From Escherichia phage AV111, in sequence record OR352941.1: a stretch of 64,000 bases of DNA. One strand, 5' to 3'. Both the position numbers and the translations under genes were made by a program. Within the stretch, counting starts at the first letter, position 1. Every line of letters begins with the position of its first letter. The notes beneath the pieces are model-generated. The model saw only the letters and a list, made by a program, of their open reading frames with translations, ran no database searches and was not told the origin of the DNA. Positions 1 to 43,724 of the stretch are shown piece after piece.

Positions 1-723
1 TACCTCTAGCTTTAGATTTTCTGAATTTATCCTTAAATTCTTTGGTTGCATTTCTTTTCGAAGCTGCGATAGAGGCCTTTGCTCTATTTTCAGGTTTAGA
101 CCAATACAATGTTTTAGATATTTTATTTTATCTTTAACATTAGGAGAATTCATTATATCTTTAAATTTTAAAGCAAAATCTCTATCGCTAAACATTTTTT
201 TAGAACGAATAGAAACTTTCTCTCTTCGTTCTTTGGTCCAATATGTTTTTTGAAATTCTCTAATTGCGTTTAAATGATTCTCCGACAATTTGCAATTTTT
301 TCTAACACCGACGTAATCTTCATTTATTTCGTTTTTAGAAAGTTTTACTATTTTGCCTGTTTTTAAATTTTTATACGGTGCATATCCTTTAGCTGATATT
401 CTAGACTTCTCGTTAGCATAAGCCTTATTAAAATATTTTTCATTTGAAACGGCTTTAACATTGAGTTGGAATAGTCTTTCTATTCTTCTAGGGTCTAATG
501 TGGTTTCGCCTAAAATTTTTACAGAATATTCGCCTTGGTCTATTAATCTGTTATATAAAGGAGAATACGAGGAATTAACACTACCGGTATATATTTTACC
601 GGTAGAATCTTCAATAATATCCTTTCCATTAAAATGACACGAAACTTTAGAACCTATATAATAACACGGGTATTCATTTTTAATCTCACGATTATAAAAG
701 GTTATAAGATATATTAAATTCAT
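1..723 (-). CDS. GIY-YIG (Seg-like) homing endonuclease, C-terminus cut by window edge
   Basis: Hand translation from ATG at 723: MNLIYLITFYNREIKNEYPCYYIGSKVSCHFNGKDIIEDSTGKIYTGSVNSSYSPLYNRLIDQGEYSVKILGETTLDPRRI...; frame stays open to position 1; YYIGS and YFNKAYAN motifs shared with ORF 11839-12660. Confidence 0.5.
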   Translation of the reverse strand, partial: MNLIYLITFYNREIKNEYPCYYIGSKVSCHFNGKDIIEDSTGKIYTGSVNSSYSPLYNRLIDQGEYSVKILGETTLDPRRIERLFQLNVKAVSNEKYFNKAYANEKSRISAKGYAPYKNLKTGKIVKLSKNEINEDYVGVRKNCKLSENHLNAIREFQKTYWTKERREKVSIRSKKMFSDRDFALKFKDIMNSPNVKDKIKYLKHCIGLNLKIEQRPLSQLRKEMQPKNLRINSENLKLEV

Positions 724-1400: not shown

Positions 1401-3089
1401 TTATGAAACAGTCATTACAGTAAATCGTCCAACTTTGCTCATTTGCAAATGTTGTCCATAACGTTGAGGGTCATGGTCCCTATGAGAAATAATGAACACG
1501 TTAGTATTTTGTAAACTTCCAAGAATGGTATCTATAGCCTTAACAGCTTCAGAATCAACTGCCCCATCAAAAACCTCATCAAGAATCAGAGTGTTGATTT
1601 TAACACCAGAGACCTTTTCAGCAATATCTCGCCATGTAAACAACAACGCGATATCAATGCGTGCTTTTTCACCTTGACTAAATGAAGCATAACTAAAATC
1701 TTCACGACCACGTGATTTTATAGATTCATTGAATTCTTCATCAATAGAAAACACGTAATCAGCTTCCATAATTTTAAGATAATGGTTAATCTGCTTGTTG
1801 AACAGAGGCACATATTTTTTAATGATAGCACCTTTAATACCAGAATCTTTTAACATATCTGTGATAATACCACGATGGTATTTTTCAAGAACGATATCCG
1901 ATTTTGTTTTAATGATTTTATCAAGTTCTTTTTGAAGCAAAGCTATCTCATCGGCATGGTCGATAAATTCTGCTGAGGCTTGCTCTATTGCAGCTTTAAC
2001 TTTCTTAGCTTTATCAATAGTGGCAATCATTGCTTGTTTCTTGGTACGAATATCGGATGCAAGGTCCTGCTTAGTCTTAACATTAGCTCTATATTCGTCC
2101 ACTAGGACACTCAGATTATCTCTGTGACAGGTAAGTTGCTCGAATGAGTGATTACATTCATGAAGCTTATCGGTAATCTTAGAGACAATAGGGTCACCCT
2201 GGTGCAATTGTGATGCACAAGTAGGACATGTGCCACCGTCATGATACATCTTAATAACTTTGTTATATGAGTCGATTTTAGATTTAATCAAGAATGCTTC
2301 TTGTCCTATCTTGTTGAATGCCTCAGTAGGGTCTTCATCAAGAACGATATTAAGTAGTCGCTCATTAGCTTCTTCGATTTCTGCTTTTAATGAACGAGCT
2401 TCTTTGGCTAGGTCGTCATACATATTCTGTAGACGCGCTACATTATCACCAGATAATTTCTTTTGACGTTCGATATTCTCGTTATAAATCTTAATTTGTT
2501 GGATAACACCATCTTTCTTGGCATCAAGAACTTGTCCCTGAGAATTAAGTTCGCGAACTTGAGACTTATTGATTTTATCCATTTCAGCGAGTGTGCCGAC
2601 TTCTAAAAGGTCTTCGACAAGTTTTCTACGAGCAGGGGTGCTAAGAGCCATGAAAGGGGTATACCCTGCCGTCCCAAGCACAACGATCTGTTTAAAAGAC
2701 GCGTATGACATTCCGATGCTACGTTCAAATTCTTCTTGGAAGTCACGACTGCTGGCAGATTCATCAAGACGAACACCGTCAACGGAGATTTCGAAAATAT
2801 TGGGCTTTTGGCCTCGTTTAATGAAGTATTTTTTATCATCGAATTCCATCCAAAGCTCAACTAAGAGCTCTTTCTTGTTCGTGCTATTAATGATTTGTCC
2901 TTTCTTAACATCACGAAATGGTTTACCGAAAAGTCCGAAAGTAATGGCTTCTAACATCGTAGATTTACCACCGCCATTTTTACCGGTGATTAAGGTCTTT
3001 TGGACTTTATCTAATTGGATATCGATAGGATTCCCACCTACCGACATGATGTTTTGATAACGAACACGATTTAATTTAAATGATTTCAT
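1401..3089 (-). CDS. 46: gp46 recombination endonuclease subunit (Rad50/SbcC-like ATPase)
   Basis: 562 aa; Walker A GKNGGGKST near N-terminus, long coiled-coil middle, C-terminal ATPase half; T4 gp46 is about 560 aa; ATG at 3087-3089. Confidence 0.9.
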   Translation of the reverse strand: MKSFKLNRVRYQNIMSVGGNPIDIQLDKVQKTLITGKNGGGKSTMLEAITFGLFGKPFRDVKKGQIINSTNKKELLVELWMEFDDKKYFIKRGQKPNIFEISVDGVRLDESASSRDFQEEFERSIGMSYASFKQIVVLGTAGYTPFMALSTPARRKLVEDLLEVGTLAEMDKINKSQVRELNSQGQVLDAKKDGVIQQIKIYNENIERQKKLSGDNVARLQNMYDDLAKEARSLKAEIEEANERLLNIVLDEDPTEAFNKIGQEAFLIKSKIDSYNKVIKMYHDGGTCPTCASQLHQGDPIVSKITDKLHECNHSFEQLTCHRDNLSVLVDEYRANVKTKQDLASDIRTKKQAMIATIDKAKKVKAAIEQASAEFIDHADEIALLQKELDKIIKTKSDIVLEKYHRGIITDMLKDSGIKGAIIKKYVPLFNKQINHYLKIMEADYVFSIDEEFNESIKSRGREDFSYASFSQGEKARIDIALLFTWRDIAEKVSGVKINTLILDEVFDGAVDSEAVKAIDTILGSLQNTNVFIISHRDHDPQRYGQHLQMSKVGRFTVMTVS

Positions 3090-3340
3090 ATGTATTCTCT
3101 TCGAATGAAGTCCTCTACATATTTTAACATGTCATCTCTATCAGCAAAATATTCATCTAGTTCTGCATACATAACAACACCTGGTGCATACTCACAGGTA
3201 ACATACATTGTTCCAAAGAAACGAGGAGTTGATTCCTCGTAATTCTCAGTCCATTCAACGATACCAATATAACCGTCACCAATACTAAATTCATGACGAT
3301 GGATTTCATAATCAGTCTTCGTCATTATACGCATCCTCAA
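3086..3340 (-). CDS. hypothetical protein (46.1-like position)
   Basis: 84 aa ORF between genes 47 and 46, start overlaps neighbour. Confidence 0.45.
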   Translation of the reverse strand: MRMRIMTKTDYEIHRHEFSIGDGYIGIVEWTENYEESTPRFFGTMYVTCEYAPGVVMYAELDEYFADRDDMLKYVEDFIRREYI

Positions 3341-3569
3341 TACACGCTTCAGCCATTTTAAGAATAGAGCCGGGAGTATCGTTGTCCATTATATTAAAGC
3401 TAAATTCAATAGCCCAGTCGGTGCAGACATGAACTGCTTTAACTTCATTGCCTTCAACGCGTAATGGCTCAATCCAATACTTGATAGTGTTCTCGAATCC
3501 ATCATCGTCTTTAACGTCCATTTCAACTTCAAGTCCAAGCCCAGCATTATTAAATTCATCTAAAGTCAT
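3312..3569 (-). CDS. hypothetical acidic protein (46.2-like position)
   Basis: 85 aa ORF, stop overlaps gp47 region. Confidence 0.45.
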   Translation of the reverse strand: MTLDEFNNAGLGLEVEMDVKDDDGFENTIKYWIEPLRVEGNEVKAVHVCTDWAIEFSFNIMDNDTPGSILKMAEACIEDAYNDED

Positions 3570-4585
3570 TGTGTTGCCTCAATATAAAGTTCGTTGGAAT
3601 ATTTGACCAGCGCTTCTCTGTCTTCGTCTGAGATATCTGGAATCGCGTCAATATATTCTTTAATGATATCTTGAAGTGATTTAATCTCGATTTCCTGGTC
3701 GTCATCAGATTCAACACTGTTATCAACTTTAGAAACCATGCGAAGAGAGTGAACTACTTTTTCAAGTTCAGATTCAAACTTAGTCAACTCTGAATCAATT
3801 TCTGATACTATAACACGTAAGGCTAGATTAGTATAATCAGAATAATTGATTTTGCCTTTAAACGGATAAGTGATTCGTCGATGCCATGTTGTTTCATTAG
3901 GAATAAATTCCATACGTTCAACATCAGTGTCAAATACCCAGAATCCGCGCGGGTCATTCTCATCACCTGCAGTAAGGGTCCATGGTGTCCCAATATATTT
4001 GACGTTAGCAGCTTCAGAGATTGTGTGGAAGTGGCCGGACCAGACTTGTTTATAGGTCTTTAAGAAATCAGGTTCAAGCCCATGAGACTTCATTCCTTTA
4101 TAGAAATAAAAGCCGTTAAGTTCCCAGTGACCAACACAATACGCAGCAGAAGAAGTCTTGATGTGCTCTAAGATTTCACCTGTATTTTCTTCACACATCC
4201 ATGGAACGATATCAATCAGACATCCGTCAAAATCTACAGTAGTCGGATGCTCGTAAATAGTAAAGTTTTCAAATTGAGTTAACAATTCAGAAACAGTGTT
4301 AGGTGTTATTGTATTCTTAAACGCCATGTCATGGTTTCCTATCGTGACATGAACGTGAATGCCTGCTTTAGAAATCATATCAACGATTTCACGATTGAAT
4401 TCCATTGTACGATGTGTTATTGCTTTACGGACGTCAAACCAATCACCGTACTGAATCCAAGTTTTAATCCCGTGTTTCTTAGAGTATTCAATTGCTTGTT
4501 GAATACCATCACGTTGAATATCTTGAACCCATGGGTCGTCTTGTTTGACTCCGATATGGAAGTCGCCTAAGTGCAAAATTTTCAT
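3566..4585 (-). CDS. 47: gp47 recombination endonuclease subunit (Mre11/SbcD-like phosphoesterase)
   Basis: 339 aa, same length as T4 gp47; N-terminal MKILHLGDFHIG calcineurin-like motif; SD GAGGAAA upstream of ATG 4585. Confidence 0.9.
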   Translation of the reverse strand: MKILHLGDFHIGVKQDDPWVQDIQRDGIQQAIEYSKKHGIKTWIQYGDWFDVRKAITHRTMEFNREIVDMISKAGIHVHVTIGNHDMAFKNTITPNTVSELLTQFENFTIYEHPTTVDFDGCLIDIVPWMCEENTGEILEHIKTSSAAYCVGHWELNGFYFYKGMKSHGLEPDFLKTYKQVWSGHFHTISEAANVKYIGTPWTLTAGDENDPRGFWVFDTDVERMEFIPNETTWHRRITYPFKGKINYSDYTNLALRVIVSEIDSELTKFESELEKVVHSLRMVSKVDNSVESDDDQEIEIKSLQDIIKEYIDAIPDISDEDREALVKYSNELYIEATQ

Positions 4586-4608
4586 ATTATTTCCTCATTA
4601 GTTAATTC

Positions 4609-4633
4609 ATTCTATCATCCGTTTATAAAGCAA
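4609..4633 (-). promoter_or_regulatory. middle (MotA-type) promoter candidate for gene 47
   Basis: Minus-strand TTGCTTTA (MotA-box-like, 4626-4633) 11 nt upstream of TAGAAT (4609-4614), then SD and gp47 ATG. Confidence 0.45.
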
Positions 4634-4656
4634 AAAAGGAACTCCGAAGAGTTCCT
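4631..4656 (-). terminator. intrinsic terminator
   Basis: Minus AGGAACUC-UUCG-GAGUUCCU followed by UUUUUU; immediately upstream of the gene 47 promoter. Confidence 0.55.
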
Positions 4657-4867
4657 ATCCACATAGTACACCGTACAGAGGCTCATTTGAACTTTTAAAT
4701 CGAATGGGCTTGTACGTAATAGTTCCTTCGGCTTTAGCTTTATCATAAGACTCTTTAAAACGTCTCATTCTTTCTGCTTTGCCTTTACGGATTTTATCGA
4801 AATTTTCAGAAGTCGGGATGTTCGTCATGCATAAGCACCTCTCAGAAAATGCCTAAATCGATTTCTC

Positions 4868-5089
4868 TCATCGTTTCCACCATTTCTTAACTTGAAATGA
4901 ATCAACCCACACGAGTTGTTTTGGGTCTGCCTTTACAATAGGCGGACAAATTTCTGTAATAGAACCGTCGTGATATTCCTTTTCAGAAATTTTAACACAA
5001 AGAGGACCACCCAATTTAACGGTGAACCCTGCGTTCAGCTTCAGACGTTTAAACTTTGTTTGAACTAGCGCCATTAATGATGTCCTCAA
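4868..5089 (-). CDS. hypothetical small protein
   Basis: 73 aa ORF; start probably internal because it overlaps ORF 5049-5372. Confidence 0.35.
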   Translation of the reverse strand: MRTSLMALVQTKFKRLKLNAGFTVKLGGPLCVKISEKEYHDGSITEICPPIVKADPKQLVWVDSFQVKKWWKR

Positions 5090-5372
5090 TAGCCTGTCGA
5101 GTAGTAACCCATTGGATTTTAATTAACTTGTCATTGTATGGTTGTCGTAGAATATCCCGAGATTTCTTAATAGCATATTCGTAAGCTTCGAAGTTGTTTT
5201 TAATTGCTGCTTCTTGAGCATGGGCATAAAGACGGTTTAGTTCAAAACGATTCTTTTTAAGAATCTTTTCGGATTTTTTACGTGCTTCAGCTTCATTTTT
5301 CTTTTGGATTTCTTGTAGCATTTTAGCTACTGCATCTTCTGCTTCTTTATTTTCAATAATCTCGGTAGTCAT
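5049..5372 (-). CDS. hypothetical protein
   Basis: 107 aa Lys/Glu-rich ORF on the coding strand of the region. Confidence 0.45.
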   Translation of the reverse strand: MTTEIIENKEAEDAVAKMLQEIQKKNEAEARKKSEKILKKNRFELNRLYAHAQEAAIKNNFEAYEYAIKKSRDILRQPYNDKLIKIQWVTTRQAIEDIINGASSNKV

Positions 5373-5373
5373 A

Positions 5374-5667
5374 TTATCTCATTAAATTAAAATAAAAACG
5401 TCCATCCTCTTCAATACAGAACTCATATTCAACTGGAGTCCCGTTTATCGAAAATGACACGTCATGTGGGTTCAAAGGGTCGATGTCAAAATTAATTTTA
5501 AATTCACGACCCAACAGTTTTACCAAATAAGGGATTGCTTCGTCAAAAGGTTCTTCTAAGTAGTTAGAGATGTCAATTGTCATCCTCATATAAAAAATCC
5601 AAACTAGGCGAATCGCTAACAACTTCCTTCTTTTCAGCCCCAGGAGCTTTATAAGCGGATTCTTCAT
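5374..5667 (-). CDS. hypothetical protein (start uncertain, overlaps gene 55 3' end)
   Basis: 97 aa ORF; first 95 nt overlap gp55, internal ATGs at 5589/5583 may be true start. Confidence 0.35.
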
Positions 5668-6130
5668 AATGCGTCATTTTATCGTAGATGTCTTGAATAA
5701 ATGTTTCATCTACCAACGCTACCATATCATCGTCATGACTGTCGTAGACATTATGAACGAAGTAACTATATTTCTTTGCAACTTCCTTACGTTCTTTTTT
5801 GATACGTTGGACAAAAGCATTAAAACAAGCTCGAGTTATGTATGCATGTGGGTTATTGTACTTAGTTTCGTCGAAATTATGAAGTCCCTTAATAGAGGCT
5901 TCAATCCCATCTGCAATCATCTCCTGCTTCCAAGACTGGGTATATCCTGAAAAGTTGAAACGTTTGGACAGGCCTTCGGCGATAAGCATAATTGCTAAAC
6001 CGATGGTATCATTCTGACGAATAATTTTGTTTGGGTCTTTATTATTTAAGAGCTCCTTTTTCCACTCGATTATAGCGGCGAGAAGCTCTTTATTATTCAC
6101 ATAGTTATTTTTAGGTTTTTGTTCAGTCAT
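5573..6130 (-). CDS. 55: gp55 late-transcription sigma factor
   Basis: Track ORF starts at TTG 6148; ATG at 6130 with SD AAGAGGT gives 185 aa as in T4; [13 protein letters not shown]...[15 protein letters not shown] matches recalled T4 gp55. Confidence 0.9.
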
Positions 6131-6202
6131 AAGTACCTCTTGGCTCAATTCATAGGTCTATTATATCATAATATTTAGAGACCTATCTTAAAGCACGAGA
6201 TA

Positions 6203-6472
6203 CTATCGGAGCAAACAATAAGCCTGAAACACTTTTTCCATTAAACGTTTGAACTCATGGATATCGATATAAAGCTCAGTAAGACCGGCATTATAAAGAA
6301 AATCTAAAAAGTTCTCATGTGTTTCGTTATAGACGCCTTCGTTTAATTGAGATACATGAGTTTCCCAAAAACCAACACCTTTAACGAATGGAAAATACGT
6401 GACTTTCATGTATTCGTCAACATAAAATTCGCCCAGCTTTTCTTCAGTTATACTGATTCGAGTTAATTTCAT
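6203..6472 (-). CDS. hypothetical protein
   Basis: 89 aa ORF. Confidence 0.45.
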   Translation of the reverse strand: MKLTRISITEEKLGEFYVDEYMKVTYFPFVKGVGFWETHVSQLNEGVYNETHENFLDFLYNAGLTELYIDIHEFKRLMEKVFQAYCLLR

Positions 6473-10034: not shown

Positions 10035-11848
10035 TGGTGTTTAACCCTATGCATGATTTCTTTATTTTTGCCGAGATTAAATCCGCGTTCGTTCGGGTTT
10101 CCCAAATAACCGCATGTTCTTCTTATGGTGTTCATCTTTTTAGGATCAGTTTCTCCGCAAACTGAACAAACAAATCCGTTTTCAGTAGGAGTCATTTCAT
10201 GGGTACTTCCACATGTAAAACATTTATCTACTGGCATATTAACACCAAAATAATCTAAATGTTGTGCAGCATAATCCCACACGGCCTCAAGTCCTTTTAA
10301 GTTATTTTTCATATCAGGAAGTTCAACATAAGAAATGTGACCACCTGTCGCAATGAAATGATATGGCGCTTCACGAGAAATCTTTTCAAACGGAGTAATA
10401 TTTTCTTCTACTGAAACGTGGAAACTGTTAGTGTACCAGCCTTTATCGGTAACATCTTTTACACTTCCATATTTTTCTGTATCGAGTTTACAGAAGCGAT
10501 AACAAAGGTTTTCAGCAGGAGTAGAATACAAACTAAAAGCAAAACCAGTTCTTTCAGTCCACTGCTTAAGATGAGCATTCATTTTAGTTAAAATTTCTTG
10601 CCCAATATCACGGCCGACAAGAATATTCAATTCGTGAATACCAATGTATCCTAAAGACACTGAACTTCTACCGTTTTTAAATAACTCAATTATGTCGTCA
10701 TCAGGTTTAAGACGAACCCCGAATGCACCTTCTTGGTAAAGAATAGGAGCTACAGTTGCTTTAACTCCTTTTAAGGAACTAATTCTACACATCAAAGCTT
10801 CAAAACACAGGTCCATTCGTTCGTTAAATAGCTCAACAAATTTCTGTTCATTGAACTGTGTTCCAATATAAGAATCTAACGCAATACGAGGAAGATTCAG
10901 TGTTACAACACCAAGATTATTACGTCCATCAAGAATTTCATTACCAGTCGAATCTTTCCATACGCTCAAGAAACTACGGCAACCCATTGGAGAAACTGGA
11001 ACTGAAGAACCGGTAATAGCTTTATTATTCTTAACCGAAATAATGTCAGGATACATTCTTTTGCTTGCACATTCTAACGCAAGTTGTTTAATATCATAGT
11101 TTGGATCATCTTTATAAAGATTAACACCTTCTTCAACAAACATAACAAGTTTAGGAAAAATAGGAGTTATTCCATCACGACCAAGACCTTTAATGCGGTT
11201 TTTAAGAATTGCCTTCTGAATCATTCGTTCAGTCCAATCGGTTCCCGTACCAAATGTAATTGTTACAAAAGGAGTTTGTCCGTTTGAACTAAAGAGAGTG
11301 TTTACTTCATATTCATAAGCTTGGAATGCATCGTATACGTCTTTTTCTGTTTTAGATTGAGCATAATTCAACGCGTCAGCGATTTGCCATTTTTCTGCAT
11401 CTTCAACATGTTTAGCGTATGTACGTTTAACATAAGGAGAAAGAACTTTATCGACATTCGCAAAAGTCGTTCCGCCGTATTGGTGTGAAGCAACTTGTGC
11501 AGTAATTTGTGCCATAATTGCAGTAGCAACACCAATCGATTTAGGCGTTTCAATTTGAGCATTGCCTAATTTAAATCCGTTCTCAAGCATCCCTTTTAAA
11601 TCTACTAAACAACAATTAGTAAAAGGCAATGATATACTGTAATCTAAATCATGAAAATGAATTAACCCGGCATTATGAGCATTTACAATATGGCTTGGAA
11701 GAATACTGCAAGCGATATGTTTAGAAACAATACCGGCCATTAAATCTCTTTTTGTTGGAAAGACACGAGAATCTTTGTTGGCGTTTTCGGTATTTAATTC
11801 TTTATCTTTATTTGAAATAAAATTTAAAACATCTTTCTCTAAAGACAT
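10031..11848 (-). CDS. nrdD: anaerobic ribonucleoside-triphosphate reductase
   Basis: 605 aa as in T4 NrdD; C-terminal zinc ribbon and glycyl-radical region RRTCGYLG; no interruption. Confidence 0.9.
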   Translation of the reverse strand: MSLEKDVLNFISNKDKELNTENANKDSRVFPTKRDLMAGIVSKHIACSILPSHIVNAHNAGLIHFHDLDYSISLPFTNCCLVDLKGMLENGFKLGNAQIETPKSIGVATAIMAQITAQVASHQYGGTTFANVDKVLSPYVKRTYAKHVEDAEKWQIADALNYAQSKTEKDVYDAFQAYEYEVNTLFSSNGQTPFVTITFGTGTDWTERMIQKAILKNRIKGLGRDGITPIFPKLVMFVEEGVNLYKDDPNYDIKQLALECASKRMYPDIISVKNNKAITGSSVPVSPMGCRSFLSVWKDSTGNEILDGRNNLGVVTLNLPRIALDSYIGTQFNEQKFVELFNERMDLCFEALMCRISSLKGVKATVAPILYQEGAFGVRLKPDDDIIELFKNGRSSVSLGYIGIHELNILVGRDIGQEILTKMNAHLKQWTERTGFAFSLYSTPAENLCYRFCKLDTEKYGSVKDVTDKGWYTNSFHVSVEENITPFEKISREAPYHFIATGGHISYVELPDMKNNLKGLEAVWDYAAQHLDYFGVNMPVDKCFTCGSTHEMTPTENGFVCSVCGETDPKKMNTIRRTCGYLGNPNERGFNLGKNKEIMHRVKHQ

Positions 11849-12660
11849 AATTCTAATTTATCCTTTTGAAATTCTTCGTCTAAATATGGGTTCCAACCCA
11901 TTTTAAACCTTTTGATGAAATTATCAATTCTAAATTTCGGTAAGTTTAAATCCGCAAAAATAGATGATTTACTTTTAAAATCTGGACCTAAATAATCATA
12001 TAAAATTTCTGCGTATTTTAACCATAATATATAAGTACCAGATTTAATTGCTCTCGGAGTTTTCCAAGGTTTTACACCATACATCGGATTTCCACTTCCT
12101 TTATGCCTGATAGAAGATGAAATTCCAATTTTAATTTTAGCTTCCTCTGTATGCGAAAATCCATGATGTGGATTTTCTTTCCAGTATTTTTTAGAAGCTT
12201 CTGATATTTTCTTTCTGGCTAAATTAGTATGATGCTTTCCATAAAATCCATGATTTTTACCTTTATTACGATTTCTTTTAATCATGGTTATTGATTGCTT
12301 TTTTCTAGTTTCTTTAGAAGGAGAAACACCATACGTTGTAAATTGACCATTAGCATATGCTAAATTAAAATACTCTTTATTCCATATATCTTTTTCTATA
12401 TTCTTTTGAAATTCAGCTTCAATGCTAGTTATTTGCTCATCTCCGACTAATTGAAAATATAATATTTCAACTTTCGGCGTTTCTTTCAACAGGGCTTTTT
12501 GAAATTCGGAAGATGACGAAGACGAATAATAAAATTTACCATTTTTATCAATAATATTCGTTCCGTCAAAAGTGCAATTAGTTTTACTTCCAATGTAATA
12601 ATATGGCGGGGTTTTAGCATTAATTCTATTAATAAATGATAGTTTATATACTACATTCAT
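11839..12660 (-). CDS. GIY-YIG (Seg-like) homing endonuclease with NUMOD3 repeats
   Basis: 273 aa; N-terminal VYKLSFIN...YYYIGS GIY-YIG-type motif; Lys-rich S.E.K.KIS repeats; inserted between nrdD and gene 49. Confidence 0.65.
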   Translation of the reverse strand: MNVVYKLSFINRINAKTPPYYYIGSKTNCTFDGTNIIDKNGKFYYSSSSSSEFQKALLKETPKVEILYFQLVGDEQITSIEAEFQKNIEKDIWNKEYFNLAYANGQFTTYGVSPSKETRKKQSITMIKRNRNKGKNHGFYGKHHTNLARKKISEASKKYWKENPHHGFSHTEEAKIKIGISSSIRHKGSGNPMYGVKPWKTPRAIKSGTYILWLKYAEILYDYLGPDFKSKSSIFADLNLPKFRIDNFIKRFKMGWNPYLDEEFQKDKLELCL

Positions 12661-24303: not shown

Positions 24304-24885
24304 TTATAACAACCCTGTCAAATCGTTCCAATGCTTCCGGCATAATGACACATATCTATCGGTATCACCAATTTCAATTTGACTGCCATCTGTAATTGGA
24401 AGTCCGTCTTCCGTGACTCTAGCTACCATTGTGGCCTTTTTACCACAATGACAGACACCTTTAAGTTCAACAAGCTTATCGGCAATAGCCATTAATGCTT
24501 GAGAACCTTCAAATAGATTACCTTTAAAATCTGTTCGTAGTCCATATGCCATTACCGGCACATTGTATACGTCAACAATACGACTAAGTTGATACACCTT
24601 TTCAGTAGTTAAGAACTGAGCTTCGTCAACAAATACGCAGTGAATATCCTTTTGTGCTGCAGCCCATTTATAGAATTCAAAGATATCCATGTCTTTTGTA
24701 ATTATATTGGCGTCCTGACGAATACCAATACGAGAGACTATTTCACCTTTTGAATCGCGAGTATCAATAGCCGGTTTAAGAACTAATACACCCATGCCAC
24801 GTTCTTTATAGTTATGTGCGGCAGTAAGTAATGAAGCAGACTTACCAGCGTTCATAGCGGCATAGGTAAAAATTAAACTAGCCAT
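24304..24885 (-). CDS. tk: thymidine kinase
   Basis: 193 aa; P-loop AAMNAGKSASLL and C-terminal Cys cluster typical of TK. Confidence 0.9.
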   Translation of the reverse strand: MASLIFTYAAMNAGKSASLLTAAHNYKERGMGVLVLKPAIDTRDSKGEIVSRIGIRQDANIITKDMDIFEFYKWAAAQKDIHCVFVDEAQFLTTEKVYQLSRIVDVYNVPVMAYGLRTDFKGNLFEGSQALMAIADKLVELKGVCHCGKKATMVARVTEDGLPITDGSQIEIGDTDRYVSLCRKHWNDLTGLL

Positions 24886-24894
24886 AAGAGTCCC

Positions 24895-25077
24895 TTATAG
24901 TGAATTCACGTAGTCAATGAGTTCTTGTTCTTTCCTGTCAAATGATTCCAACAATGCTTGATATTCTTCGTCCGTCAAAGGAGCATATTCATCATACGCA
25001 TTGGTGGCTGCTTGCTCATCCAATAGGTCATGGATAAGTTCAAACAGTTTAGTTTTCTCTTCTTTAGTCAATTTCAT
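24895..25077 (-). CDS. hypothetical acidic protein
   Basis: 60 aa ORF. Confidence 0.4.
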   Translation of the reverse strand: MKLTKEEKTKLFELIHDLLDEQAATNAYDEYAPLTDEEYQALLESFDRKEQELIDYVNSL

Positions 25078-25301
25078 TTAGGTTCACCTTCTTTAACGAA
25101 ATCTGGGTAAGGGTAAAATCCTGAGTAAAACCCTTCACCTTTATGATTGCTACAACCTTTGTTCGAACAGTAACACCAATAATCAAAATCACAAGCCATT
25201 TCGTCATTGCATAAAGCAAAAACTACAGGCCATTCGCATTTTTCGCATTTAGCACCTGTAAGAATTTTTGTTTGACTCATAGCCATGTCACCTTTAAGCA
25301 A
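25074..25301 (-). CDS. Cys-rich small protein
   Basis: 75 aa, about ten Cys. Confidence 0.45.
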   Translation of the reverse strand: MLKGDMAMSQTKILTGAKCEKCEWPVVFALCNDEMACDFDYWCYCSNKGCSNHKGEGFYSGFYPYPDFVKEGEPK

Positions 25302-25504
25302 TATTCTTCTACATGTTGTTTACGGCCTTTCTTATCAATAAAGGTATATTCAACGAATGTTCCGATGTAGTCTTTATCTACATCATGTGGACTATTAATT
25401 GGACATTTAGTACGACAAATGCGTTCCCATTGACGAATAATTACTGCCTTATTCTTTGGATCATATGGATGTGGATAATGTATATTCATAATAACGGTTC
25501 CCAA
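25277..25504 (-). CDS. hypothetical protein
   Basis: 75 aa ORF. Confidence 0.45.
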   Translation of the reverse strand: MGTVIMNIHYPHPYDPKNKAVIIRQWERICRTKCPINSPHDVDKDYIGTFVEYTFIDKKGRKQHVEEYCLKVTWL

Positions 25505-27576: not shown

Positions 27577-27839
27577 TAGTATTTTTCCTCAGGTCGAAAT
27601 ACTGCACGACATGCCCACATGCTGGCTTCTTTTAGATGTTGCTTAGCATACTTAAGAGCCTGCACTGCATCCATATCTTCTTTGGTTTGTTGCTCTGTTT
27701 CATTTTCTTTCAAGATATATGCTTCTTCAATCAGAGCATCAAACATCAATCCAAGACGGACTTCTGCATCTTTAATAGCGTTCACTTTACCGATTTTATC
27801 GTCGGTATGTGGCTTGTAGCCTTTGATGTCTTCAATCAT
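27576..27839 (-). CDS. hypothetical protein
   Basis: 87 aa ORF, ATGA-type coupling. Confidence 0.45.
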   Translation of the reverse strand: MIEDIKGYKPHTDDKIGKVNAIKDAEVRLGLMFDALIEEAYILKENETEQQTKEDMDAVQALKYAKQHLKEASMWACRAVFRPEEKY

Positions 27840-28069
27840 TTCACTTCCTCGCCGGTTGCGATATCATATTCTACCAAACTAAGTCCGTCGGTCCAACCCT
27901 GAACGGAGATATAAGTGCTAGGATAAACCAGTTCTTTACCGTTCCACTGACCACCGTCCCAACATTCCATAAAGTCCTGTTCGCCTTGACCGTGGAACCA
28001 GTCAACAAACATCTTCAGAGCTTCTTCAGAACCTTCAATAGTCAATTTAGACATATTTTTTCCAGTCAC
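27836..28069 (-). CDS. hypothetical Trp-rich acidic protein
   Basis: 77 aa ORF. Confidence 0.45.
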   Translation of the reverse strand: MTGKNMSKLTIEGSEEALKMFVDWFHGQGEQDFMECWDGGQWNGKELVYPSTYISVQGWTDGLSLVEYDIATGEEVK

Positions 28070-28343
28070 TAATTAATCGCACATCCTGGTCATATGTCAG
28101 GAGGCTACGAGTTATAATACCCTTACATGGTCCAGAAATAAATTCCAAAGTAAAGTAAGGAACCAACTTCATCAAGCGAATACTCGGAGCAGTGCAACGA
28201 AATCTGGACCCAATAAAAGGTCCAGACAAAAACACGTACTCAAAGAAATTTGCTTTATTAAAGATTTCAAAATTCTTTACGAAATCTTCAGACCTAACCT
28301 TTGGAATAAAATAGATTTGGTCAAAAAGCTCTTCATGAGTCAT
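28047..28343 (-). CDS. hypothetical protein
   Basis: 98 aa ORF. Confidence 0.45.
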   Translation of the reverse strand: MTHEELFDQIYFIPKVRSEDFVKNFEIFNKANFFEYVFLSGPFIGSRFRCTAPSIRLMKLVPYFTLEFISGPCKGIITRSLLTYDQDVRLISDWKKYV

Positions 28344-28924
28344 TATTGCATTCCAATCACAAAAAATTGAGGACGAACTGTTCCACCCGTTTTAAAACAA
28401 TGAGCATGACAGCAGTGTTGTACAGTTTTCATATGGATATCGTAAATCTTGTCCATATCAGGAGCTTTAATAGGTTCATCAATTATATACAATACGCGTG
28501 AAAGCGCAAGGCCACGGAATTTAGAACCTTCATTACCGATAAAGCTACGTAATGAATCATGGAAAAGCTGGTAACGAATATCTTCCGCGCTAAAACGAAT
28601 AAAATCATTTTTGATAGAATCGGATGAAATTCTTGCATAAGCAGAGGTATTAGACAGGACAATTACTGTACCTCCGTCATAAATCCAGTTAGCGGCAAAA
28701 TTAGTTACTGCAGTAGATTTACCTGATTGTCGCCCGCCATCCATACGGAGTGTGCAGTATTCTTTGAGCAAGACTTCCATTGGAGGAATATAACAATCGG
28801 TCTTACAAAGTTCTTCTATTCGAGCATCAGAATGGTGGGTAAAAGCATTCATCAGGGATAGATAAGGTCCAGTTAAAAATGTTCTCATATTATTTCTCTT
28901 AAGGTTTGGGCCATTCCGTGGCAC
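28343..28924 (-). CDS. P-loop NTPase, small
   Basis: 193 aa; Walker A DGGRQSGKST, Walker B VLYIIDEP, C-terminal Cys/His cluster. Confidence 0.5.
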   Translation of the reverse strand: MPRNGPNLKRNNMRTFLTGPYLSLMNAFTHHSDARIEELCKTDCYIPPMEVLLKEYCTLRMDGGRQSGKSTAVTNFAANWIYDGGTVIVLSNTSAYARISSDSIKNDFIRFSAEDIRYQLFHDSLRSFIGNEGSKFRGLALSRVLYIIDEPIKAPDMDKIYDIHMKTVQHCCHAHCFKTGGTVRPQFFVIGMQ

Positions 28925-29060
28925 ATGTTAGGTCCTTCGACTCGCTATGTAAACCCATTACCGCATTGCGCTCGACCTTATTACAGGTTGGAAAAGGTAC
29001 ATCACTCAGAGGACTCGACGTTCATAAGGAGAGGTTGCGTTTCCCTTTATTAGGCAAGAA

Positions 29061-29390
29061 TTATACTCGAGGCTTTTGAGCTTGTTTGGTATTGGATTCC
29101 CATGCAGCTTTGGTAATTTTGTTAGCGGCATAACCAAAGGCATTAGATAGAACACCTTTAGAGTTGAATACATCCAATCCAATAAGTACACCGGCTGCGT
29201 TAAATTTAGGAGCAAAGTATGCATTAGTTTTAGAAAGAGCTTTTTTCAATTCAGGGTCTTGAACCAAACCATCAAAAACGCCTTTACTATTTACTTTATA
29301 TGTTACTTTGGGATTTTTACCTTCTTCGATAGCAGCTTTCTGTTCCGCAGATAATGTAACTTCAGTGATAAACTCTTGATACGTTTTCAT
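29061..29390 (-). CDS. internal-protein-like (capsid-targeting leader)
   Basis: 109 aa; N-terminal MKTYQEFITE leader. Confidence 0.6.
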   Translation of the reverse strand: MKTYQEFITEVTLSAEQKAAIEEGKNPKVTYKVNSKGVFDGLVQDPELKKALSKTNAYFAPKFNAAGVLIGLDVFNSKGVLSNAFGYAANKITKAAWESNTKQAQKPRV

Positions 29391-29453
29391 TTTTGTTTCC
29401 TTGTTTATTTTGATAGAGTAATTATACCATATTAATACTTAAGCGTAAACAAT

Positions 29454-29714
29454 TTAAGCTTTACCGCCAGAAATAATTCCGAAGTTGTTAAAATCGTATC
29501 CAATATCGTCAACATCTACTTTAGGGCTTGCTACAACATAAGCAATTTCACTACGTTTTGCATAGGTGTTGATTTCTTTACCATCGCCACCTAAGAAAGA
29601 ATACCCATTACGTTTTAATGAGCCAAAGTCTTCCGCATCACCAATGAAAGCTTTAACTTTAAATTTAGGACCTTTGGCATCTGCTTCAATGATAAATTCT
29701 TGATACATTTTCAT
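29454..29714 (-). CDS. internal-protein-like (capsid-targeting leader)
   Basis: 86 aa; N-terminal MKMYQEFIIE leader. Confidence 0.6.
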   Translation of the reverse strand: MKMYQEFIIEADAKGPKFKVKAFIGDAEDFGSLKRNGYSFLGGDGKEINTYAKRSEIAYVVASPKVDVDDIGYDFNNFGIISGGKA

Positions 29715-29720
29715 TTTTCC

Positions 29721-30134
29721 TTAGTAAATTGATTTGCCATAATATTTATACCAAGACGGCCGTTGAGCAATTTTTTCATCTAAGCGTGCTTGACTTATCG
29801 CAATGGACGCTTCGGACGGGTCATAATTATTACGAAATTCGGCAGGGATGTCGGAAATATCCTGGACTGTCGTGTCCTTGATTTTGAAACCACGTTTCAA
29901 GCATTCAGCGATTAGCTCGATTTGACGTAAACGTAAAAATTCGAGTTTGTCGTAAAAGAATGTTACGTGACCTGTGCCTAAGATAAATGTTGGAGAGATT
30001 TTAAAATCCTTTACACGTTTACCGTTTTGAACATGTTTACGGACTGCACCAAATACGCGTGGTAATTCACGATACTCAGCCATAAGATGTTGGTCGGACA
30101 GTTCAGAAACAAGTGTTAAATTGATACGAGTCAT
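29721..30134 (-). CDS. denV: endonuclease V (pyrimidine-dimer DNA glycosylase)
   Basis: [31 protein letters not shown]... matches recalled T4 DenV; ATG 30132-30134; early promoter 30162-30190. Confidence 0.9.
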
Positions 30135-36071: not shown

Positions 36072-36633
36072 GGATTAAATTGTTAGTGAAATTAGGACTA
36101 ACAACCATAGTTTCATAAAGCGCGTCAATAGCACTTAAAGCATCAACTCTTTTAAGCAAAGGCTTGCCTTCATACATAGTTTCAGAATCGATGATTAACG
36201 TAAAGTAATATTTTTTATTATCGACTAGAACTTCTGTATCGATATAAAACATATTAGACCTCAGAAGCTTATCTCTAAAACCATAATAATCTTCTGAACG
36301 TTCACTGATATATTCCAATTCGGTGTTTAAACAACAAACAGACCACGTAGGAGCAACGAAATCAGTGAATCTAATATCATGGTCTGCAACTAGTTTAGCA
36401 ATAGCTCCGATATCATGAATCATAATACCTGGGGCTAATAAAGATTTTCTGCTATGGCTAGCCGTTTTCTCGGTGGTCTCATAAGAAGACGACCAGTACC
36501 ATTTACGTCCGGTTGCAACATATCGTAATGAATCAACTAAAGACGTAGGTGGATTTACCTTATCTCGGAACTCTTCGAACATTGAGTCAATATCATTATT
36601 TTGGTTTCGCATGTTAACTCCTTTATTATCCAA
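36010..36633 (-). CDS. hypothetical protein with C-terminal ...FIMECR motif
   Basis: 207 aa ORF. Confidence 0.5.
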   Translation of the reverse strand: MDNKGVNMRNQNNDIDSMFEEFRDKVNPPTSLVDSLRYVATGRKWYWSSSYETTEKTASHSRKSLLAPGIMIHDIGAIAKLVADHDIRFTDFVAPTWSVCCLNTELEYISERSEDYYGFRDKLLRSNMFYIDTEVLVDNKKYYFTLIIDSETMYEGKPLLKRVDALSAIDALYETMVVSPNFTNNLILEQFIMECREYVKANPIHAK

Positions 36634-38138: not shown

Positions 38139-38166
38139 AACATTTTCCTCTGTGGTTGATAAGTCT

Positions 38167-38194
38167 ATAGTATCATGTCCTTAGAAGAAGTAAA
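38167..38194 (-). promoter_or_regulatory. early promoter
   Basis: Minus GTTTACT-N16-TACTAT. Confidence 0.5.
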
Positions 38195-38228
38195 CATCTT
38201 TATGAAATATTTTTATGCCCTAGATACC

Positions 38229-38255
38229 AAAAAGCCCCAACCTTTCGGAAGGGGC
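38229..38255 (-). terminator. intrinsic terminator
   Basis: Minus GCCCC-UUCCGAAAGG-UUGGGGC then UUUUU; near-identical to 38763-38790. Confidence 0.55.
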
Positions 38256-38261
38256 ATTCTA

Positions 38262-38525
38262 TTATTTAATTTGTTTAGCAGACCAGATACGGTCTTTAAT
38301 AAGTTTTTGGATATCTTCAACATACTCAAGGCTATGAGCGTGAGGATTATCTTTGAAGCTATGTGCTCGTGCCAGTTTCTGGCCTTCTGTTTTGATTACT
38401 AAAAGCTCTTTAAGAATTGCTTCATACTTAGAAATAATTCCTTTGGCGATATTTTTTTTCTTGAGCTGCTTTAGGGTCCGCTTTTGGCGCAGGTGCTTTA
38501 CCTGTAGCTTTCTGGAACAATTCAC
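38262..38525 (-). CDS. hypothetical basic protein; may be the shifted-frame continuation of 38428-38727
   Basis: 87 aa ORF overlapping the IP-like ORF by 98 nt across a T8 run at 38452-38459. Confidence 0.3.
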   Translation of the reverse strand: MNCSRKLQVKHLRQKRTLKQLKKKNIAKGIISKYEAILKELLVIKTEGQKLARAHSFKDNPHAHSLEYVEDIQKLIKDRIWSAKQIK

Positions 38526-38727
38526 CTGATGCAGCTAGGCTTTTAAAAACTCGGCTAACAGTATTAGCATTAGTAAAACCTTCGGCTTTAAAATCTCTAA
38601 TAAAACGGAAACGTTCTTCATCAGAGGCGTCTTTGTAAGAATATTTACCTGCTTGAATTGCTGCAATCGCAGCGGCTTTTACATCTGAACTAGATTGTTC
38701 AGTCAAAAATTCAGCGTATGATTTCAT
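38428..38727 (-). CDS. internal-protein-like (capsid-targeting leader)
   Basis: 99 aa; N-terminal MKSYAEFLTE; Ala/Lys/Pro-rich C-terminus. Confidence 0.5.
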   Translation of the reverse strand: MKSYAEFLTEQSSSDVKAAAIAAIQAGKYSYKDASDEERFRFIRDFKAEGFTNANTVSRVFKSLAASGELFQKATGKAPAPKADPKAAQEKKYRQRNYF

Positions 38728-38762
38728 GTTGCTTTTCCTAAGTTAATTAACTTATCTATTTA

Positions 38763-38790
38763 TTATTATGCCAAAAAGCCCCGACCTTTC
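38763..38790 (-). terminator. intrinsic terminator downstream of the structured-RNA region
   Basis: Minus AGCCCC-UUCCGAAAGGUC-GGGGCU then UUUUU. Confidence 0.55.
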
Positions 38791-39474: not shown

Positions 39475-39550
39475 TGGTGCCTCTAGAAAGATTTGAACTC
39501 TCACCATTAACCTTAGAATGATTATATGCTATCCATTACACTATAGAGGC
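39475..39550 (-). tRNA. tRNA-Arg (anticodon UCU), CCA encoded
   Basis: Hand-folded 76 nt cloverleaf: acceptor GCCUCUA/UAGAGGC, D-stem GUGU/GCAU, anticodon stem UAAUC/GGUUA with loop AUUCUAA, T-arm GAGAG-UUCAAAU-CUUUC. Confidence 0.75.
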
Positions 39551-40201
39551 AATTAAATTATTTACAATATCTTCTTTATAAACTTCAGCATAATGAAGTT
39601 CATATATTTCCCATCCTAATGATTTTATAATATCATGGCGTTCTTTATAATAAGGGGCCAAAATCTTTTTCTTAGGATTGGAGTAATGTTGGTTTCCATT
39701 AACTTCAATAATAATCTTTTTATCTATTAAAGCAATATCCGTGCAATACGCTCGGTTTTTAACCGGTTGGTATTCTTCAATAAATGAAATTCCATTTTCT
39801 ATTAATTTAGATTTCAAAAATTCACAAGGCACAGATTTAAATTTTGTATTTTTCTTCCAAGGATGTTTATCGGGGTTTTCATTCAACCATTTTTTCCGAG
39901 CATTAGATATTTTTATTCTAGCTTCCTCAGAGTGTTCTCTACCTAATGAAGCGGCTGACAATTTTTGTCTAGTCTCTTCCGAAATTACTACAGGAACACC
40001 AGTCTTTTTAGATACAACATACTGGTTTAAATTACCTGAAGCTATACGTGCTTTATTCATTGCTGCAATGGCTGATTTAGAACTTTCTTTATACAATTCC
40101 AATTTAGGGTTGGATTTACACCATCTAGTGTGGTTAGCCATCCATCCTTTAGGTTTATTAGAAATATCAAATTCCATATTACAATGTTTACAAATGCTCA
40201 T
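39536..40201 (-). CDS. homing-endonuclease-like protein: Zn finger + NUMOD3-like repeats + DUF559/Vsr-like PD-(D/E)XK nuclease domain
   Basis: ATG at 40199-40201 (track start is TTG 40207); CKHC...WC; SEETRQKLSAASLG and SEEARIKISNARK; C-terminal IDKKIIIEVNGNQH...ERHDIIKSLGWEI; sits between tRNA genes. Confidence 0.6.
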   Translation of the reverse strand: MSICKHCNMEFDISNKPKGWMANHTRWCKSNPKLELYKESSKSAIAAMNKARIASGNLNQYVVSKKTGVPVVISEETRQKLSAASLGREHSEEARIKISNARKKWLNENPDKHPWKKNTKFKSVPCEFLKSKLIENGISFIEEYQPVKNRAYCTDIALIDKKIIIEVNGNQHYSNPKKKILAPYYKERHDIIKSLGWEIYELHYAEVYKEDIVNNLIASIV

Positions 40202-40275
40202 TACCAATTATCTCCTATAAAATATAGGAGTATTTATTATTTGGATAGAGCACTTAATTTACTTCGTTTAAATTA

Positions 40276-40347
40276 CTGGCGCACTTTGACTCGAACCAAG
40301 ATAAAGGAGTTAACAGCTCCCCGTAATAACCTTTATACGATGCACCA
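40276..40347 (-). tRNA. candidate tRNA-Asn (anticodon GUU), CCA not encoded
   Basis: Hand-folded 72 nt: acceptor UGGUGCA/UGCGCCA (one GU), anticodon stem GGGAG/CUCCU with loop CUGUUAA, T-loop UUCGAGU; one G-A mismatch in T-stem, 3-bp D-stem. Confidence 0.4.
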
Positions 40348-40353
40348 TTTGTT

Positions 40354-40428
40354 TGGTGACCCTGGCTGGTTTCGATCCAGCTACCTATCAGTTATGAGCT
40401 GACAGCTCTCCCATTGAGCTACAGGGCC
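40354..40428 (-). tRNA. tRNA with CAU anticodon (elongator Met or Ile2), CCA encoded
   Basis: Hand-folded 75 nt: acceptor GGCCCUG/CAGGGUC, D-arm GCUC-AAUGGGA-GAGC, anticodon loop CUCAUAA, T-stem GCUGG/CCAGC. Confidence 0.7.
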
Positions 40429-41686: not shown

Positions 41687-41886
41687 CTTTTTGCAATTTT
41701 ATCCATAACGATAGCGATTAAACCGATTAGAAATGCTACTACCAATGAGATAGAATTTTCAGTTGTTGTCAGTAGTCCGCAAATGAATCCTACAAACATC
41801 GAAAAACTAAAAGCCATTGAAGCAATTACTACAGCAACATTACGAATCAGTTCAGCGCGTTTCATTTTATTTCTCCATTTACTCAT
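41683..41886 (-). CDS. small membrane protein
   Basis: 67 aa, two TM segments; early promoter 41903-41932. Confidence 0.5.
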   Translation of the reverse strand: MSKWRNKMKRAELIRNVAVVIASMAFSFSMFVGFICGLLTTTENSISLVVAFLIGLIAIVMDKIAKR

Positions 41887-41902
41887 TTGTTTTGATAGGA
41901 CT

Positions 41903-41932
41903 ACTATAACATAATCCTATCAGCATGTAAAC
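41903..41932 (-). promoter_or_regulatory. early promoter (stem-loop cassette family)
   Basis: Minus GTTTACA-N17-TATAGT in TAGGACTA...TAGGATTA near-palindrome. Confidence 0.55.
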
Positions 41933-41935
41933 TAC

Positions 41936-42223
41936 TTACAGAAGAGTTTTTGCAATAATTTTAAGCTGAGCTACAGAAATATGCTTAGCTTTAAACAGTG
42001 CAGTCTCTTCAGCCGGAGAGATAACAATAGTAGCGCCGTCTTTCTTAGCAGACCATCCATCCCCTAAGTAAACAGTACCTTTTACTTCTTCGCCGTCAAC
42101 CAGACTAATCATTGGTTTACCCTCACGTCCTTTATTTGTTTTAATAACTTCGGAAGTAAGGGTTGCTTCGGTCAGAGTAGAAACGTTAGCATCAGGTGAT
42201 ATAAATTCTTTATAGGTTTTCAT
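41936..42223 (-). CDS. ipI: internal protein I (injected anti-restriction protein)
   Basis: 95 aa as in T4 IPI; MKTYKEFISP leader; adjacent to 57B as in T4; early promoter 42258-42287. Confidence 0.7.
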   Translation of the reverse strand: MKTYKEFISPDANVSTLTEATLTSEVIKTNKGREGKPMISLVDGEEVKGTVYLGDGWSAKKDGATIVISPAEETALFKAKHISVAQLKIIAKTLL

Positions 42224-42242
42224 TTTATTTCCTTGAGGTCGT

Positions 42243-42985
<743 letters not shown>

Positions 42986-42989
42986 TTTA

Positions 42990-43724
42990 TTACCTTAAGA
43001 TTTTTTCAATTTTAGAATAAAGCTCTTCTAAAGAGCCGTCGTTTGTAATAACTAAATCGCCTTCTTCAATAGGCAACCCAGCTTCTGTAATATGTTTATC
43101 AGTGGATTCCGTACCAGAGCGAACCACATGAATAACTGTAGCACCCATCGCTCTAGCGGTTTCCATTTCATGGACTTGGCGTGTATCGGTCACAACGTAG
43201 TAATCGAAATCACTTCCAATATAATCCATATAGTTTAATGCAAAAAGCTTAACCCAATACATACGGTCAAATAAATTAACGACAACATCCGTACCGAGGG
43301 CTTGCATAAGACGGCGGATCGACCACGTGTCGTTGATATTATTTATAGCTTCACGCAGGGCTTCGTACGGTTTAATATCTAGATATGAGTATCCACCTTC
43401 TAAGGATGATAATACTTTAACATTATTAATTGGTAAATATTGACTTTGTAAATAAATTAGCGCTTCTTCCATTAATTCAATAACATCCAACTTATTGATA
43501 TTTAATGGTGTTTCACGGTCATATCCGACACCTTCAAAGTATTCGTATTTCAACTCCGTGAATACATCAGGGTTTTCAGCATGTTTACGCCCCCAGGCTA
43601 TTGCTAGAGCGTCTTTAATCGGATATGCCAATTGATATTTTACGGATTTAAAGTTTGAATTGATGTAATCAGCAGTAGTGTCTTTACCACTACGTTTGAT
43701 GCCGCTTAAAAAGATTAGCTCCAT
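42990..43724 (-). CDS. 1: gp1 deoxynucleoside monophosphate kinase
   Basis: 244 aa; MELIFLSGIKRSGKDTTADY P-loop as in T4 gp1; SD GAGGAAAA. Confidence 0.9.
   Translation of the reverse strand: MELIFLSGIKRSGKDTTADYINSNFKSVKYQLAYPIKDALAIAWGRKHAENPDVFTELKYEYFEGVGYDRETPLNINKLDVIELMEEALIYLQSQYLPINNVKVLSSLEGGYSYLDIKPYEALREAINNINDTWSIRRLMQALGTDVVVNLFDRMYWVKLFALNYMDYIGSDFDYYVVTDTRQVHEMETARAMGATVIHVVRSGTESTDKHITEAGLPIEEGDLVITNDGSLEELYSKIEKILR

Follow-up and report, generated by a model that had tools for sequence, protein, structure and literature searches.

The gene 47-55 interval of Escherichia phage AV111 lacks the alpha-glucosyltransferase gene of T4, as do RB69-like Mosigvirus phages

Phage T4 produces glucosyl-5-hydroxymethylcytosine by way of gp42, a-gt and b-gt. 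Which host defences a T-even phage evades, and which it sets off, depends on how its cytosines are hypermodified; the defences concerned include type II and type IV restriction (GmrSD, McrBC), glucosyl-hmC DNA glycosylases and CRISPR-Cas. The modification also has a bearing on the cutting, cloning and sequencing of the phage DNA by standard methods. A different modification has been described for RB69. Arabinose was found in the DNA of this phage and ORF003c was proposed as the transferase, in a study in which RB69 was found by BlastP to be without all of the T-even glucosyltransferases (Thomas 2018, PMC6024577). The chemistry was later revised and a pathway proposed for RB69 by Lee 2026 (PMC13326640). 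As shown chemically in the latter work, which establishes the chemistry of the virion DNA for RB69 alone, the cytosines of RB69 are fully replaced by alpha-Araf-5-hydroxy-dC and beta-Araf-3-alpha-Araf-5-hydroxy-dC, the nucleosides having m/z 376.13 and 508.18 with a base fragment of m/z 128.05 (PMC13326640). The flavin-binding thymidylate-synthase homologue gp48 makes 5-hydroxy-dCMP, as determined experimentally, and gp159, the gene 1 dNMP kinase, converts 5hodCMP to 5hodCDP; the first arabinose is predicted to be added by gp46:47 and the second by gp3, both of them GT-B-like arabinosyltransferases, and gp50-gp55 are predicted to make the NDP-arabinose donor (PMC13326640). The number of sugars varies among related Straboviridae, with one in Thanatos, two in RB69 and three in DLP3 (PMC13326640).

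The DNA analysed here, referred to as the window, is a stretch of 64,000 nucleotides from Escherichia phage AV111 (OR352941.1). The genes in its first 6.2 kb all lie on the minus strand and comprise gene 46 (1401-3089), 46.1, 46.2, gene 47, four small ORFs and gene 55. Gene 47 (3566-4585, minus strand), which encodes an SbcD-like recombination nuclease subunit of 339 aa with 75.5% full-length amino acid identity to T4 gp47 (tblastn) and a Pfam Metallophos domain, forms one boundary of the interval under study. The other is gene 55 (5573-6130, minus strand), whose product, the late sigma factor, is 90.7% identical to T4 gp55 over 182 aa (tblastn). From the gene 47 start to the gene 55 stop there are 987 nt (4586-5572), which directly downstream of gene 55 hold a collinear block comprising homologues of all four T4 genes a-gt.2 to a-gt.5, each on the minus strand. 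The a-gt.5 homologue (5374-5589; 71 aa, 47% identity to T4 a-gt.5; Pfam DUF5491, E=5.8e-13) shares 17 nt with the 3' end of gene 55 and is followed by those of a-gt.4 (5049-5372; 107 aa, 58% identity; Pfam DUF2654, E=1.4e-27), of a-gt.3 (4868-5074; 68 aa from ATG, or 73 aa if counted from an upstream TTG; 71% identity; no Pfam family), whose limits match the annotation in RB69 and mar005P1, and of a-gt.2 (4655-4828; 57 aa, 76% identity; Pfam DUF5486, E=4.5e-28). None of the four small ORFs (0/4) matches AGT (PF11440) or any glycosyltransferase family in Pfam, while T4 a-gt, used as control, is recognized with E=2.9e-260. An a-gt ORF between a-gt.2 and gene 47 is absent, and its slot consists of a non-coding, terminator- and promoter-like spacer of 69 nt (4586-4654, minus strand) that separates the a-gt.2 stop from the gene 47 start. 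ORF analysis, tblastn, blastn breakpoints and Pfam thus bear out an earlier, sequence-only reading of this DNA, according to which no glucosyltransferase gene lies between genes 47 and 55 and the interval is shorter than 1 kb and holds only three or four ORFs of 57-107 aa, the number of ORFs being exactly four. On the functions of a-gt.2 to a-gt.5 we found a single incidental mention in the literature.

The same reading had placed the T4 alpha-glucosyltransferase gene between genes 47 and 55, and the T4 interval does include a-gt; it measures 3,152 nt as compared to the 987 nt of the window, the extra genes being 47.1, a-gt and mobB. Genes 47 and 55 and a-gt.2 to a-gt.5 of T4 (Tequatrovirus) are orthologous to those of the window and unchanged in order, whereas a T4 stretch of 2,252 nt (positions 2451-4702 of the T4 locus, L002), which contains 47.1, a-gt (PF11440) and mobB, a gene for an HNH homing endonuclease, has no counterpart, its place being taken by 34 nt (4588-4621) in the window. 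The flanks defined by blastn pair L002 1408-2450 with window positions 3545-4587 and L002 4703-6200 with window positions 4622-6172. The Klebsiella phage Mineola (Jiaodavirus) has the backbone of the window too, with 55, a-gt.5, a-gt.4, a-gt.3, a-gt.2 and then 47, but differs in that a-gt, the product of which is 66% identical to the T4 protein, lies directly between a-gt.2 and 47, without mobB or 47.1. Since a-gt occupies this slot in both Tequatrovirus and Jiaodavirus, the slot is conserved in two genera and empty in the window, and a-gt.2 to a-gt.5 persist beside it whether or not a-gt is present.

A consensus scan of the spacer identified a terminator-like, G+C-rich hairpin with a T-run at 4637-4656, which overlaps the stop codon of a-gt.2. 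The hairpin is followed on the minus strand by the MotA-box-like motif TTTGCTTTA (4634-4626) and, eleven bases past this motif, by the -10-like TAGAAT (4614-4609), and a GAGGAAA ribosome-binding site at the end of the spacer precedes gene 47. Judged by the T4 middle-promoter consensus (MotA box plus -10), the spacer may be read as a terminator and then a putative middle promoter for gene 47. It aligns with the spacer between a-gt.2 and mobB of T4 and resembles that between a-gt and 47.1. As in the window, a-gt.2 of T4 is followed by a terminator hairpin and then the GCTTTATA motif, and T4 has a second hairpin-plus-GCTTTATA unit after a-gt, so that a pair of these units flanks the mobB/a-gt cassette. 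Recombination between these units could add or remove the a-gt cassette, and the repeated units around the T4 cassette fit cassette exchange by recombination, be it as a loss in Mosigvirus or as a gain in Tequatrovirus and Jiaodavirus.

The window is a segment of an RB69-like (Mosigvirus) T-even phage. It is 96.5% identical in nucleotide sequence to RB69 over 59.5 of its 64 kb, and in megablast positions 3400-6400 are matched over at least 80% of their length by 146 phage records, nearly all with 95-99.5% identity. Among the matches listed (30 of the 146) all are E. coli or Shigella phages and no glucosyltransferase is annotated under the match; Mosigvirus taxonomy is given in all four of the best-matching records that were examined. 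The closest record at the 47-55 locus is vB_EcoM_G53 (G53). Like the window, RB69 carries 47, a-gt.2, a-gt.3, a-gt.4, a-gt.5 and 55 in identical order with no glucosyltransferase, and its gene 1 kinase and IPI homologue are 96.3% and 97.9% identical to those of the window. It differs in being without the seg-like homing-endonuclease insertions of the window and in containing RB69p156, which the window lacks. The closest database records reach 97-99% identity to the window, no single one of them having its full set of insertions, and the genome is mosaic.

The missing a-gt is thus real but ordinary for the group, as RB69-like phages are already known to be without the T4 glucosyltransferases, and constitutes a published genus-level trait (Thomas 2018, Lee 2026). 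The main value of the finding is that of an annotation pointer: where an RB69-like 47-55 interval is without a-gt, arabinosyl-5-hydroxycytosine is to be expected, and the 'gene 42' homologue of an RB69-like phage is not to be annotated as a dCMP hydroxymethylase. The latter point corrects the sequence-only reading, which had assumed such an enzyme. The homologue of this lineage is a 5-hydroxy-dCMP synthase; consistent with this, the gene 42 position is taken in G53 and RB69 by an ORF that is only about 25% identical to T4 gp42 and matches Pfam Thymidylat_synt.

We consider it highly probable that AV111 is an RB69-like Mosigvirus phage which is without a-gt and makes arabinosyl-5-hydroxycytosine instead of glucosylated hydroxymethylcytosine. 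The possibility of a different DNA hypermodification had already been raised from the letters of this DNA, and the RB69-lineage assignment, the lack of glucosyltransferase homologues and the published chemistry of RB69 support it; that AV111 has the arabinose cluster and the DNA chemistry of RB69 we infer from its relatives. Because Mosigvirus phages do not glucosylate hydroxymethylcytosine they would carry no alpha-glucosyltransferase gene, and the slot between a-gt.2 and gene 47 would have been reduced to the terminator/promoter spacer of 69 nt with a-gt.2 to a-gt.5 being kept. In the pathway envisaged, dCMP would be supplied by a gp56-type dCTPase and turned into 5-hydroxy-dCMP by the flavin-dependent thymidylate-synthase homologue (gp48 in RB69); this nucleotide would be phosphorylated by the gene 1 dNMP kinase found in the window, and the base would then be incorporated into DNA. 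One or two arabinofuranoses would be put on its 5-hydroxyl by gp46:47, which adjoins gp48, and by gp3, with a phage-encoded arabinose-5-P isomerase, a phosphatase and a kinase/nucleotidyltransferase providing the sugar donor.

Of the published RB69 pathway the window contains gene 1 (42990-43724, minus strand) and no other component. The gene 1 product, a dNMP kinase by homology, is identical to RB69 gp159 at 96.3% of positions over all 244 aa. The arabinose cluster is located between uvsX and gene 43 and starts about 5 kb upstream of where the window begins; gp3 adjoins rIIA. For their presence in AV111 the relatives provide evidence which, if indirect, is consistent. All proteins of the RB69 pathway are 92-100% identical in G53. 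Moreover, contigs with an rpbA or gp46 identical to that of the window are without an alpha-glucosyltransferase-sized gene in the 47-55 interval in 15 of 15 cases and have SIS, NTP_transferase and U32 genes beyond gene 43 in all 15 as well, and a thymidylate-synthase homologue is present in all six of those whose flank reached far enough. Phage AV116, which has a rare seg-like insertion in common with the window, contains the arabinose cluster together with a gp3 homologue. The gp46:47 arabinosyltransferase as such is found in 348 phage records from several Straboviridae groups, including RB69 and other RB69-like coliphages.

But could the transferases of AV111 differ from those of RB69? The transferase genes lie outside the window and the number of sugars differs among related Straboviridae, so that a variant of the Mosigvirus system might attach another number of arabinoses or another sugar. 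However, in Mosigvirus relatives with 97-99% identity to the window both gp46:47 and gp3 are at least 99% identical to their RB69 counterparts, and we give this variant only a small chance. A slightly smaller one falls to what would be the more unexpected outcomes, namely that a transferase set outside the window unlike that of RB69 yields another cytosine glycan, or that one of the a-gt.2 to a-gt.5 proteins handles modified DNA. As to RB69-type arabinosylation, the reading we favour, a third transferase hidden in the window was considered and rejected: the DNA of RB69 is only mono- and di-arabinosylated and two transferases are assigned, which together cover its two sugars, so that a further, hidden one is not to be expected. 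In the RB69 reference record gp46/gp47 (24597-25497) and the kinase-nucleotidyltransferase gp52/gp53 (28094-29780) are split into two ORFs each, while each of them is one ORF, of 299 and 561 aa respectively, in G53 (24465-25364 and 27965-29650) and in metagenome contigs. The gp46/gp47 split has been ascribed to a sequencing error and gp52:53 has been treated as one protein (PMC13326640), in agreement with the single ORFs of G53.

A search for glycosyltransferases had been proposed as a check along with the sequence-only reading; T-even glucosyltransferase homologues were looked for directly in the 64-kb window and, for the rest of the genome, in close relatives, and none was found. With T4 a-gt, T4 b-gt, the RB27 beta-glucosyl-HMC-alpha-glucosyltransferase (beta-alpha-gt) and Mineola a-gt as tblastn queries, no credible glucosyltransferase match was obtained within the window. 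The best a-gt match (36346-36525; E=0.017, 27.5% identity over 69 aa) lies inside the e.5 homologue and is attributable to chance; it recurs in RB69 at E=0.042, the ORF has no Pfam family, and it was rejected as a-gt. For b-gt (PF09198), whose canonical locus between uvsX and gene 42 falls outside the window, and for beta-alpha-gt there was no match in the window at E<=1, and their matches in RB69 were at chance level with E of 0.8 or worse (tblastn). Pfam detected no glycosyltransferase domain in ten window ORFs, most of them without assigned function. Both RB69-type arabinosyltransferases, which served as a control for this screen, match no Pfam family either, and its negative outcome is therefore uninformative for divergent GT-B enzymes.

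There is, then, the question of whether a-gt or another T-even glucosyltransferase has moved elsewhere in the genome, in which case the phage would still make glucosyl-hmC. About 104 kb of the genome lie outside the window, T-even genomes are mosaic, and the window itself contains mobile-endonuclease insertions that are missing from RB69, all of which would accommodate a relocation. Against it stands that tblastn of the complete RB69 genome gave no homologue of a-gt, b-gt or beta-alpha-gt, and that of positions 1-36,000 of G53 no glucosyltransferase homologue. Moreover, of the 657 phage records with a-gt homologues those listed are Tequatrovirus-type phages (at least 90% identity) or Klebsiella/Raoultella phages (about 66%) and none is RB69-like. 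In addition, since the gene 42 position in the relatives is occupied by the 5-hydroxy-dCMP synthase, with its 25% identity to T4 gp42, the hmC acceptor base would not be made. Taken together, this makes relocation very improbable. A recent deletion of the a-gt cassette from an otherwise glucosylating T4-type phage, by laboratory passage or in assembly, would leave non-glucosylated hmC DNA and could in principle have occurred by recombination between the two similar hairpin-then-GCTTTATA units that bound the T4 cassette. This alternative is effectively refuted, since independent isolates share the arrangement (about 146 phage records and 15 of 15 metagenome or isolate contigs), and the flanking genes, being just 47-91% identical to T4 in protein, point to an old lineage difference.

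The anti-restriction systems on which the sequence-only reading had remarked are touched upon by a further gene of the window. In T4, internal protein I (IPI) is an injected inhibitor of the type IV restriction enzyme GmrSD. The window contains an IPI homologue (41936-42223, minus strand; function predicted) with 97.9% identity to RB69 gp155, which bears on that remark. RB69 gp155 has been named an IPI homologue (PMC13326640). The other RB69 internal-protein genes p125, p127 and p155 are present in the window, but nothing corresponds to RB69p156, a 108-aa product annotated as an internal head protein, at 42224-42242, between the IPI homologue and 57B (42243-42755).

Several insertions distinguish the window from RB69. 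A GIY-YIG (seg-like) homing-endonuclease gene occupies positions 1-722 (minus strand), between rpbA (729-1145) and the expected gene 45; in RB69, G53 and 15 related contigs this site is occupied by gene 45 itself. This insertion is common to only nine phage records, the best match being AV116 with 99.2%. Compared to the 296-aa protein of AV116, the frame of the window gene shifts after about 201 codons, near position 120, which suggests a frameshift or a sequencing error. A second seg-like ORF of 273 aa with the motif 'YYIGSK' (11839-12660, minus strand) separates nrdD from gene 49, with a 10-nt overlap with the nrdD start; it is missing from RB69 and present in one related contig (L024), with a faint NUMOD3 match. 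A third ORF (39536-40207, minus strand; 223 aa) resembles a homing endonuclease by weak Pfam matches to RAP, DUF559 and NUMOD3. The segment around it (about 39478-40383) has no alignment to RB69, whose tRNA genes are located near this position. In the Mosigvirus AV116 (L015), a 267-aa ORF (41771-42574) whose N-terminus is GIY-YIG-like (FYIGS motif) and whose C-terminus is seg-like takes the place that a-gt.2 and a-gt.3 have in the window, with gene 47 on one side and a-gt.4 on the other. This ORF, together with mobB of T4, suggests that homing-endonuclease genes recurrently land in the 47-55 interval. Finally, positions 28339-29401 of the window are 87.9% identical to RB69 as compared to 95-98% in the rest of the window, and two short gaps, 27838-28338 and 38148-38772, do not align to RB69; all three represent local mosaicism, affecting the vs.8 and e.8 regions.
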